From a virus (lineage: Duplodnaviria; Heunggongvirae; Uroviricota; Caudoviricetes), in the IMG/VR virus record IMGVR_UViG_2698536552_000004: 10,259 nucleotides of DNA; one strand, given 5' to 3'. The notes below the pieces were generated by a model that was given only the letters and a program-made list of their open reading frames with translations, had not been told where the DNA came from and ran no database searches. Within the stretch, counting starts at the first letter, position 1. Every line of letters begins with the position of its first letter. This document shows positions 3,041 through 4,893 of this stretch, in pieces. The translations under genes and the position numbers were made by a program.

Positions 3041-3167
3041 TTGTCGTATGCACGCGCACATCTGAATTATGGTGGGGCGCATGGGGGAGCTGAAAAGCTC
3101 GCCGGTCGGTTTCCCGGTAGTTCCAACCCTGTGCGTCTCACCACCCGATGATTGGAACCTGACGGTG

Positions 3168-3196
3168 TTGACAGTTTCAGGTTTGCAGTTTACATT
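3168..3196 (+). promoter_or_regulatory. candidate sigma70 promoter upstream of the ORF6N-like gene
   Basis: Consensus -35 TTGACA at 3168-3173, a 17-nt spacer, then TACATT at 3191-3196. It lies downstream of tR', so it could drive Q-independent expression. Sequence match only. Confidence 0.3.
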
Positions 3197-3402
3197 TCCC
3201 CGCGGTGCTCAAAACACCTCGAAAGCGGTATCCACACCCGATAGCCATGTGGTTTTTTTGTGTCCAGAATTCTTGGTTTATGACCGGGTGTGCGGCTAAT
3301 ACAATACCAGCAATGGAAATACGCCCGCCGACTTTCGACGGTTTTGAGCGCCCGGTCACCCTCTCAAAAGGGGTAAATCAAAATATTCGAAAGGACATGT
3401 CT

Positions 3403-3926
3403 ATGAATCGCACGTCTATTGAAAAACTCCCGTCACTTACGCATAACCATCTTCCTGTCATGACAACAGAGCTGCTGGCTGATTTGTACGGAACAGAGCG
3501 CCAGCGTTTGACAAACAATTTCAATCGAAACAAAGAACGGTTTATAGAAGGTAAACATTTTTTCCTGATAGAAGGTGATGCGTTACGAGAGTTGAAGAAC
3601 GAAAACTCTTTAAGAGTTTCTGTGAAAATTGCCCGTAACGTTCGCTCCCTCATCCTCTGGACAGAACGTGGCGCAGCCCGTCACGCCAAAATGCTCGAAA
3701 CCGATCAGGCGTGGGAAGTGTTCGAAAAACTGGAAGACTGTTATTTCAACCAGAAACAGCCACCAGCGGCACAAAACACATCTATCGAAAATGATGGATG
3801 CGCATTACTGAGCCACTTCGATAAACACGGTCAGGTTGAGTTCACGGAAAAGGTACCCGCCGATGCGATGGTATGTACTCTGGAACGGTTTAAATTTTAT
3901 CTGGAGCAACACGGGTGGATCGTTGC
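3403..3926 (+). CDS. ORF6N-domain (phage antirepressor-like) protein, N-terminal part; 3' end hidden by N-mask
   Basis: RBS AAGGA at 3391-3395 precedes ATG 3403. MNRTSIEKLP...LPVMTTELLADLYGTERQRLTNNFNRNKERFIEGKHFFLIEGDALRELK matches the ORF6N/antirepressor N-domain signature as I recall it. The frame is open into the mask starting at 3927. The track start at 3205 is rejected, as the upstream stretch has no RBS and odd composition. Confidence 0.55.
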
Positions 3927-4159
3927 NNNNNNNNNNNNNNNNNNNNNNNNNNNNNNNNNNNNNNNNNNNNNNNNNNNNNNNNNNNNNNNNNNNNNNNNNN
4001 NNNNNNNNNNNNNNNNNNNNNNNNNNNNNNNNNNNNNNNNNNNNNNNNNNNNNNNNNNNNNNNNNNNNNNNNNNNNNNNNNNNNNNNNNNNNNNNNNNNN
4101 NNNNNNNNNNNNNNNNNNNNNNNNNNNNNNNNNNNNNNNNNNNNNNNNNNNNNNNNNNN

Positions 4160-4235
4160 NNNNNNNNNNNNNNNNNGTCAGAGCGAGCGACTCATAATCG
4201 CCAGGTCGCTGGTTCAAGTCCAGCAAGGGCCACCA
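4160..4235 (+). tRNA. tRNA with CAU anticodon, ileX-like (tRNA-Ile2 or Met); 5' ~17 nt inside the N-mask, start estimated
   Basis: The visible 59 nt (4177-4235) contain anticodon loop CUCAUAA, T-arm GCTGG-TTCAAGT-CCAGC and the acceptor 3' strand plus CCA. They align to the 3' 59 nt of E. coli ileX as I recall it. The start is extrapolated assuming 76 nt. Confidence 0.7.
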
Positions 4236-4236
4236 A

Positions 4237-4313
4237 CCACCACTAGCTCATCCGGATAGAGCATCAACCTTCTAAGTTGACGGTGCGAGGTTCGAGTCCT
4301 CGGTGGTGGGCCA
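4237..4313 (+). tRNA. tRNA-Arg (anticodon UCU)
   Basis: Manual cloverleaf: acceptor CCACCAC/GTGGTGG, D-stem GCTC/GAGC, anticodon stem TCAAC/GTTGA with loop CTTCTAA, T-arm CGAGG-TTCGAGT-CCTCG, discriminator G and encoded CCA. It resembles the argU-type tRNAs carried by lambdoid and Stx phages. Confidence 0.8.
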
Positions 4314-4315
4314 GC

Positions 4316-4391
4316 GCCGACTTAGCTCAGCAGGCAGAGCAACTGACTTGTAATCAGTAGGTCACCAGTTCGATTCCGGTAGTCGGCACCA
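4316..4391 (+). tRNA. tRNA-Thr (anticodon UGU), thrU-like
   Basis: GCCGACT...AGTCGGC acceptor, anticodon stem ACTGA/TCAGT with loop CTTGTAA, T-loop TTCGATT and encoded CCA. Near-identical to E. coli thrU as I remember it, apart from D-loop differences. Confidence 0.85.
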
Positions 4392-4394
4392 TAT

Positions 4395-4469
4395 GCGGGC
4401 ATCGTATAATGGCTATTACCTCAGCCTTCCAAGCTGATGATGCGGGTTCGATTCCCGCTGCCCGCTCCA
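4395..4469 (+). tRNA. tRNA-Gly (anticodon UCC), glyT-like
   Basis: GCGGGCATCGTATAATGGCTATTACCTCAGCCTTCCAAGCTGATGATGCGGGTTCGATTCCCGCTGCCCGCTCCA folds as a cloverleaf with anticodon loop CTTCCAA and appears identical to E. coli glyT as I recall it. Confidence 0.85.
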
Positions 4470-4893
4470 GCGAGATTTGAGACGAAGGTTGTTATTTGCA
4501 CTGACACAATATTGTGTGGGAATGTCTGACTCCTTACCATCTCCTGTTCTGTGATGTTGTTTTGTTGCAGTTCCAGTGCTCTTTTTTCAGCACCAGNNNN
4601 NNNNNNNNNNNNNNNNNNNNNNNNNNNNNNNNNNNNNNNNNNNNNNNNNNNNNNNNNNNNNNNNNNNNNNNNNNNNNNNNNNNNNNNNNNNNNNNNNNNN
4701 NNNNNNNNNNNNNNNNNNNNNNNNNNNNNNNNNNNNNNNNNNNNNNNNNNNNNNNNNNNNNNNNNNNNNNNNNNNNNNNNNNNNNNNNNNNNNNNNNNNN
4801 NNNNNNNNNNNNNNNNNNNNNNNNNNNNNNNNNNNNNNNNNNNNNNATGGCCTTTTTTCTTTCCGATAGCACAGGTCTGTCGGGGGGCGGGAT

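Follow-up and report, generated by a model that had tools for sequence, protein, structure and literature searches.

The window analyzed here, a stretch of 10,259 nucleotides (nt) from a Caudoviricetes virus record (IMGVR_UViG_2698536552_000004), covers a late-region junction of a lambdoid prophage. Between the gene for the Q antiterminator (2515–2922; Pfam PF06530) and that for a class II holin (4894–5109) lies the locus that concerns us, in which an ORF6N antirepressor-like gene (3403–3966, 187 amino acids (aa)) is preceded by a long leader and followed by tRNA genes; leader elements, gene and tRNAs are all on the plus strand. An earlier note on the window, made from its letters, had correctly put this locus in the Q-to-holin cargo site and had correctly recognized the ORF6N gene (PF10543, E 7.9e-21, 74.6 bits against a cut-off of 27.8, residues 15–99). 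It took the region in front of the gene as a 360-nt leader, however, and overlooked three Rfam-scoring RNA elements there (isrK/c4-a1b1, C4 and sRNA-Xcc1). Parts of the window are masked. Only 3403–3926 of the gene are visible, and its end coordinate was counted from L009 (chromosome CP045524.1), an unmasked proxy with 100% identity to all visible stretches of 2147–8132.

Two RNA modules in the ORF6N leader

The first module starts with a promoter, TTGACC-18-TATATT (2927–2956), which the promoter scan placed directly after the Q stop codon (2920–2922), in the position of pR'. Its -35 and GGGGCTATATT -10 region are kept in Gifsy-1, VT2-Sakai, VL40 and Nil2, and alignment identified it as the isrK promoter of Gifsy-1. 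Downstream is an IsrK-like short RNA, a putative a1/b1 decoy (2963–3039; Rfam isrK 77.5 bits, gathering 50, supported by its fold), which overlaps a c4-a1b1 match (2950–3002; 50.1 bits, gathering 46.7). It ends in a Rho-independent terminator found by the terminator scan (3018–3034 plus a T run), the one that the earlier note had called tR'. A C4-type antisense RNA follows (3065–3148; Rfam C4 71 bits, gathering 45), folding into the family architecture with a minimum free energy of -44.9 kcal/mol. Its hairpin-2 loop is TCGGTTTC (3106–3113) and its junction is GTTCCAA (3120–3126), the complement of the TTGGAAC in the second hairpin loop of IsrK (2988–2994).

Just past the C4 element, TTGGAAC recurs at 3152–3158, and this first site is the sole downstream target of module 1 that remains. 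Beyond 3158 the second target, the Shine–Dalgarno (SD) sequence and the gene start of single-module loci are replaced by the promoter of module 2. The SD-proximal C4 target, present in 29 single-module loci, is thus absent here, and the C4 RNA is therefore without a cis target at the ribosome site. In a single-module relative (L045), whose IsrK 5' part and C4 3' half are identical to the window, the AGAAACC/SD target is intact. Two other tandem loci carry first sites that do not match their RNAs: L056 has TTGGAAC-type RNAs but a TTGGCGT site after C4 (1241–1260), and L058 has TTAGCAC-type RNAs but a TTGGAAC site (1243–1262). These non-cognate sites point to a recombination joint between C4 and the first target. 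An open reading frame (ORF) of 76 aa at 3069–3299 was rejected as coding; it has no family match, is variable in length and overlaps both the C4 RNA and the next promoter.

The second module opens with TTGACA-17-TACATT (3168–3196; promoter scan, inferred start near 3203), proposed earlier as the gene's own promoter. The hexamers are indeed present, and a TTGACA-type -35/-10 pair occupies the same place in seven close relatives (among them L003, L004, L019, L055, L056 and L058); the distant L083 has a -10 hexamer at the position. Spacers or hexamers vary among relatives, and the match taken alone is within chance (3 sites against 1.4 ± 1.3 expected in 2.2 kb). A short RNA from this promoter (candidate decoy, 3203–3259) would carry a hairpin GGTG-CTCAAAA-CACC with site a1 at 3208–3215, then site b1, TCGAAAG, on its 3' side (3219–3225), and a terminator CCACA...TGTGG (3232–3252) with seven Ts. 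A compensatory change in the terminator stem (CCACA/TGTGG against CCGCG/TGCGG) preserves pairing.

The third RNA is an antisense element of the sRNA-Xcc1 family (3282–3365; Rfam 77.4 bits, gathering 53, full length 1–87), with a hairpin loop b' CTTTCGA (3332–3338) and a junction a' TTTTGAG (3342–3348). Loop and junction are complementary to the upstream CTCAAAAC and TCGAAAG (3208–3225), and equally to TCAAAA and TCGAAAG at 3378–3393, with a predicted duplex of -14 kcal/mol. The latter pair belongs to a target region (3363–3395) made up of a hairpin loop CTCAAAA (3363–3369), TCAAAA (3378–3383) and TCGAAAG (3387–3393), the last of which overlaps the SD sequence AAGGA (3391–3395). The most likely start of the ORF6N gene is the ATG at 3403 behind this SD sequence; the ATG at 3397, just 1 nt from it, was rejected. 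The IsrK, c4-a1b1, C4 and Xcc1-type elements likewise scored above gathering in L009. The C4 and the Xcc1-type element each finish with a long closing stem and then ACCC, no more than a suggestive hint of an RNase P 5' end.

Whether both modules matter can be doubted. Module 1 might be no more than pR', the late promoter, together with leader and tR', or else what is left of a recombination event and now decaying, in which case module 2 would be the sole regulator and the tandem without a function of its own. The promoter abuts the Q stop codon, the module is cut right after its first target, L056 and L058 show that this site can be non-cognate, and the tandem leader (at least 80% query coverage) was found in just 5 of 5426 complete E. 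coli genomes, parts of it occurring in 830. We nevertheless regard this as possible but doubtful. In VT2-Sakai and Nil2 this promoter and IsrK are found beside ninE and not next to Q, and for that reason we take module 1 to be self-contained; moreover IsrK and C4 are intact, score like functional ones and match L045 in the parts given above. On the alignments, the leader instead appears to be a fusion of two modules. Module 2 (3168–3402) stands upstream of antB-type genes in Nil2 and P13374, and since the C4 RNA here lacks a cis target at the ribosome site, module 2 would be the gate of the ORF6N gene.

Recognition sequences among ORF6N loci and distant sRNA-Xcc1-type RNAs

Module 2 covaries at three places, and five specificity types were found. 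In the window the antisense loop CTTTCGA faces TCGAAAG both upstream and at the SD site. In EC12 (L003) the loop is CTACTGA and both sites are TCAGTAG, whereas in Nil2 (L004) and P13374 (L019) the loop is CTACTTG and both sites are CAAGTAG. In the distant L083 and L092 both the a and the b recognition sequences are altered, at all three places. MAFFT alignment of the whole module 2 leader misplaced the variable loops of these two loci, and complementary runs were counted directly instead.

Module 1 behaves in the same manner. Among the 29 single-module loci there were 21 distinct antisense segments, each compared with its own IsrK loop, the post-C4 site and the ORF6N SD site, and the segment fits all three. 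The longest Watson–Crick run averaged 7.2 nt for cognate pairs, compared with 4.8–5.7 nt for non-cognate pairs across the three sites, and none of 5000 permutations reached the observed mean. As to distribution, isrK plus C4 lay directly upstream of ORF6N in 31 of 37 distinct viral-contig loci, isrK plus C4 plus Xcc1 in four, and Xcc1 alone in two.

A covariance model built from seven Xcc1-type elements gave 54 genome matches (in Stenotrophomonas, Pseudoxanthomonas, Luteimonas, Moraxella, Desulfovibrio, Arsenophonus and others), of which the 38 with full flanks were analyzed. A site was defined as a complementary run of 7 nt or more. Within the upstream 120 nt, at least one cognate site was present in 34/38 and at least two in 23/38, compared with 19.5% and 2.3% for non-cognate pairings. 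The downstream 126 nt gave 18/38 and 10/38, compared with 18.8% and 2.1%.

The genes behind these distant RNAs are of more than one kind. A hidden Markov model of enterobacterial ORF6N proteins recognized a single distant downstream ORF. In a subsequent Pfam run on seven downstream ORFs, three were SymE toxins above cut-off (34–38 bits) and one was a SymE below it; the others were one Bro-N, one ORF6N and one without a match. Xcc1-like RNAs precede SymE-toxin genes in the Stenotrophomonas loci L156, L195, L153 and L188, where complementary sites lie upstream of the RNA and none within 126 nt downstream; the target of these SymE-linked RNAs may lie elsewhere.

Chen et al., in 2011, reportedly described sRNA-Xcc1 (RF02221) from Xanthomonas integron cassettes as a trans-acting RNA controlled by HrpG/HrpX. 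The papers searched treat it as trans-acting and virulence-linked; they mention that symE or an ORF6N gene follows it and give no mechanism. We found no description of flanking complementary sites in the literature searched, a set that did not include the original 2011 paper, so that the C4-like logic of these RNAs appears to be undescribed. The element at 3282–3365 passes the family model, and distant members share with it the flanking complementary sites. The settings differ: the Xanthomonas RNA is found in integrons upstream of symE toxin genes and is held to act in trans, whereas the element here is in the late region of a lambdoid prophage, upstream of an antirepressor gene, with cis sites on either side, one of them on the SD sequence.

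A probable antisense-RNA gate on an AnrP-type gene

The ORF6N protein aligned with Gifsy-1 AnrP at 49% identity over 184 of 187 aa (E 6e-58), and both proteins cover phrog_2379, annotated 'anti-repressor', from end to end. Its closest protein cluster, P0001 (named from Shigella sonnei), is 99% identical and also 187 aa long, and most of 120 homologues were 181–195 aa, among the matches listed. The longer homologues that were checked differ by upstream start calls alone. Two Salmonella entries (P0006 and P0120, 215–219 aa) start about 30 codons upstream (MEICPPTFDGFERP...), inside the Xcc1-type RNA, as the reading frame is by chance open from 3205 on; these calls are probably an annotation artefact.

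The earlier note had supposed that a C-terminal domain was hidden by the first mask and that, if an undescribed function existed in the window, it was likely to be here. The first does not hold, and the second was not supported. In L009 and L007, a second relative that reads past the mask edge, the protein ends 13 codons into the mask, at 187 aa, with the terminal sequence WIVARKEQLVERLMRF before the stop codon. Pfam gives ORF6N alone in the visible 176 aa, with no ANT/KilA-C C-terminal domain, and PF10543 is the one precomputed Pfam domain of full-length 187-aa relatives. The protein is thus a routine full-length member of phrog_2379, in the AnrP family. The masks hold its last 13 codons, intergenic sequence with a terminator, a tRNA 5' end and spacer, much as the earlier note had pictured the ordinary alternative, although the protein is not of the Ant/KilAC type which that alternative had specified.

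The structure check suggested in the earlier note could be carried out in part: a model was obtained, but the protein has no significant fold match in PDB. AlphaFold (mean predicted local distance difference test score 79.6) gave an ORF6N domain at the N terminus, reaching about residue 115, then a linker of low confidence (118–129) and a small C-terminal unit, with the last 55 aa modeled as two strands and two helices. Searching PDB sequences with the family profile yielded no match, and Foldseek against PDB returned nothing below E 0.1. The best non-significant Foldseek matches (E 0.1–0.7) were winged-helix-like Ski/Dachshund DNA-binding domains, and these would be in keeping with a transcription factor that directly activates early or Q-operon transcription rather than binding a repressor. 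Given how weak the matches are, and that the family annotation is anti-repressor, we consider that role unlikely. An antirepressor role, suggested by AnrP homology and family annotation, fits the protein better in our view.

A second reading of the gene, as a lysogenic-conversion or moron locus whose ORF6N protein has an undescribed function (superinfection exclusion or defense, for example) and is expressed from its own promoter in the lysogen, seems to us very improbable. It draws on the Q-to-holin cargo site, where Gifsy-1 carries gogA, on the sigma-70-like promoters, on the transcription of homologous RNAs in Gifsy-1 lysogens, and on the C-terminal 70 aa, which are mosaic among relatives and have no solved structural relative. 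Yet the protein is full length and of the same family as the Gifsy-1-inducing AnrP, and the masked blocks conceal nothing unusual, neither an extra domain nor an extra gene. The Gifsy-1 gene, moreover, is transcribed yet untranslated unless IsrK is raised, the opposite of a constitutive moron.

We therefore favor, with a probability of roughly 0.7, an antisense-RNA-gated antirepressor cassette of the P1 immI or Gifsy-1 isrK–anrP kind, followed by a four-tRNA array. The Xcc1-type RNA (3282–3365) would be cut out of the ORF6N leader and would hold off translation of the gene, its CTTTCGA and TTTTGAG pairing with TCAAAA...TCGAAAG on the SD sequence. The promoter at 3168–3196 would also yield the short terminated RNA (about 3203–3259), which carries the same two sites and could act as a decoy titrating the antisense RNA. 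ORF6N would then be translated only with the short RNA in excess, or with raised read-through, as under Q-modified transcription, and the protein, once made, would by homology derepress the prophage. Module 1 (2927–3158), because its own ribosome-site target is lost, would be left with supplying transcription to module 2 or with a role in trans.

The nearest known system is Gifsy-1, which has the order Q, isrK, C4, a 187-aa ORF6N gene (STM2616, AnrP), tRNA-Arg, cargo and holin. There transcription from the isrK promoter reads past the IsrK terminator into anrP, the anrP message is translated only if short IsrK is supplied in trans, and AnrP both increases antQ operon transcription and causes prophage induction (PMC4825925). 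A stable RNA, STnc1160, maps where Rfam places C4, and the ATGs of 'orf45' were assigned at +107 and +119 (PMC4825925); lysogens transcribe both IsrK and STnc1160 at high levels (PMC7067206). According to the review of the Gifsy-1 paper, orf45 is conserved at the nucleotide and not the protein level. The window shares the place right after Q, the promoter and IsrK (83.5% DNA identity over 2940–3155), a C4-type element with ATGs at +107 and +119, a 187-aa ORF6N protein, and tRNA followed by lysis genes. It differs in its extra Xcc1-type module between C4 and gene, in the specificity of module 1 (TTGGAAC, compared with TTGGCGT in Gifsy-1), in a Q protein of 135 rather than 225 aa, and in four tRNAs rather than one. 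No isrJ match was found in unmasked L009 at E ≤ 5, whereas Gifsy-1 scores 100 bits.

That the mechanism published for Gifsy-1 applies here unchanged, with IsrK opening the orf45 ribosome site, coupling switching on the antirepressor and the C4-like element being coding sequence, we give very little credence. The equivalent ATGs (3069 and 3081), which overlap C4, do fall at exactly +107 and +119 from the start of IsrK, and mutational data support the model in Gifsy-1 (PMC4825925). The ORF that they open (3069–3299, no Pfam match), however, stops 104 nt before the ATG at 3403, and with a promoter, a terminator and a second structured RNA in between, orf45-type coupling cannot reach the ORF6N gene. 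The 71-bit C4 score, the lack of protein conservation of orf45 and the position of STnc1160 also count against it. These data suggest rather that in Gifsy-1, too, a C4 RNA occupies the 'orf45'/STnc1160 region, as an antisense-gated cassette would have it.

The immI region of P1 and P7 offers the second comparison. Citron and Schuster, in 1990, reportedly set out its layout as a1b1, c4 antisense RNA, a2b2, icd and ant. In P1, c4 RNA pairs at the ribosome site of ant and so keeps it from being translated (PMC12197685). In common with our locus are a structured antisense RNA within the leader of its own target mRNA, two recognition sequences repeated upstream and at the ribosome site, co-varying specificity types and an antirepressor as output. 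Here a C4 RNA and a1/b1 copies are present, and a ribosome-site target exists for the Xcc1-type RNA only. The window has an ORF6N-type antirepressor instead of P1 Ant and no icd-like ORF that we could see; its gene-proximal RNA is of the sRNA-Xcc1 and not the C4 family, and it lies in a lambdoid late region rather than the P1 immunity region. The P4 CI RNA with its seqA and seqC sites can be likened by description, as a processed immunity RNA that pairs with repeated sites on both sides, and the Gifsy-1 authors called it a structural analogue of IsrK (PMC4825925). P4 CI, unlike the RNAs here, terminates transcription of replication genes, and no antirepressor is involved.

Several points weigh against our interpretation. 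The locus is known from its sequence alone, from which we infer RNA processing, decoy action and antirepressor activity, and part of the covariation may still reflect common descent. The C4 model gave no match on the Xcc1-type element at E ≤ 1, and C4 and Xcc1-type RNAs may therefore not be homologous. Half of the distant Xcc1-like RNAs lack a downstream site within 126 nt. For Gifsy-1 itself, the authors credit orf45 translation and mRNA refolding, not a C4-like antisense RNA (PMC4825925).

The system is of a known kind, in an uncommon tandem variant. What goes beyond the known kind, on the evidence given above, is a heterotypic tandem with an orphaned C4 module and a set of sRNA-Xcc1-type RNAs that follow the three-site logic of c4. 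One sequence logic with swappable 7-nt loops would thereby join the literatures on P1 c4, Salmonella IsrK/AnrP and Xanthomonas sRNA-Xcc1, and it offers a cis-regulatory reading for sRNA-Xcc1, still discussed recently as a virulence or vesicle-delivered small RNA. Antirepressor gates set prophage wake-up, and antisense specificities would set which co-resident or incoming phages are cross-controlled. A broader, rather speculative idea, which we put forward tentatively, is that Xcc1 RNAs are portable C4-like locks on harmful genes (SymE in Xanthomonadaceae, Bro-N/ORF6N in phages) and that the orphan module 1, of TTGGAAC/GAAACC specificity, silences L045-like antirepressors in trans.

Masked blocks, tRNA array and neighboring features

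Relatives reading across the masks were sought by exact protein look-up. Look-ups with P0001 and the holin protein led to L007 and L009, whereas the Q protein found only short contigs, all ending before the mask. Exact-pattern scans of viral contigs spanning both masks of the locus gave no match, because the N blocks do not keep length and a 250-nt gap could never fit. L006 is 100% identical to window 2153–3854, and L007 has one mismatch in 3166 nt (761–3926) and extends 206 nt past 3926. The blocks at 3927–4176, 4597–4846 and 6417–6680 correspond to 247, 506 and 241 real nt in L009, and distances across any mask are therefore unreliable. The earlier note had asked for the hidden bases of the first two blocks, and these could be recovered from L009, with the first block also read in L007.

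Mask 1 (L009 1781–2027) contains the last 13 ORF6N codons, a terminator (GC hairpin AAACCCGCCGATGAGCGGGTTT followed by seven Ts), a weak site resembling a promoter, and 18 nt from the 5' end of a tRNA with anticodon CAT. The promoter-like site, sigma-70-like in sequence (TTTGCA-18-TATTAT, L009 1971–2000), ends 10 nt before the first tRNA and may serve the tRNA array as a promoter of its own. Under mask 2 lies non-coding spacer, in which hairpins resembling terminators occur.

Three terminators stand in series before the tRNAs (3018–3034, 3232–3252 and the one in mask 1), the last being common to phages without the cassette. One such related phage, L014, has Q, a different promoter and a short leader, then the same terminator and tRNA block, and the cassette therefore sits between Q and the mask 1 terminator.

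Four or more tRNAs had been noted earlier, and four were found, three intact and one cut by the mask. ARAGORN identified the tRNA with anticodon CAT (4159–4235, of which 4159–4176 are masked) as Met, while RefSeq relatives have it as tRNA-Ile; it is followed by tRNA-Arg(TCT) (4237–4313), tRNA-Thr(TGT) (4316–4391) and tRNA-Gly(TCC) (4395–4469). Annotations of many E. coli prophages include identical arrays. Clusters of the ileZ-argN-argO type are found downstream of Q in lambdoid and Stx prophages. The array resembles these in having rare-codon tRNAs (AUA, AGA, ACA, GGA) between Q and lysis or cargo genes, and differs only as a four-gene variant, with nothing else notable.

Between tRNA-Gly and the holin gene lies non-coding spacer (4470–4893; really 680 nt, L009 2321–3000) in which neither a convincing ORF nor an Rfam match turned up and which RefSeq relatives leave unannotated. 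It is 98–99.5% conserved in other E. coli prophages and has several terminator-like hairpins, one of them (L009 2934–2960) right before the holin start.

Other small elements follow the ORF6N gene elsewhere. STnc100 and the anti-sRNA AgvB (96.5 bits), the latter encoded on the other strand, come after the gene in the enterohemorrhagic E. coli-like loci L058 (2368–2623) and L093 (2354–2510); neither was found in the window. A hok/sok-type element (Rfam sok, 96–128 bits) lies about 100–400 nt past many single-module ORF6N genes (L066, L067, L069, L075, L077, L084, L086 and L090, at about 2090–2600), and isrI or isrJ follows the gene in Salmonella-like single-module loci.

Further out, the window encodes a DnaB-like helicase (389–1921) and RusA (2175–2546) upstream of Q, and lysozyme, Rz and terminase genes after the holin. 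A 329-aa ORF at 6110–7099, with HNH and Terminase_4 in one protein, is an artefact of reading through the third mask; in L009 the HNH endonuclease (116 aa) and the small terminase (164 aa) are encoded by two genes, and the roughly 120 nt between them contain a GC-rich hairpin with a T run behind it. The last 97 nt of the window (10163–10259) match L011 in inverted orientation, beside IS4-family (DDE_Tnp_1) and rve-type transposase genes, and an insertion sequence may interrupt the prophage at this end.

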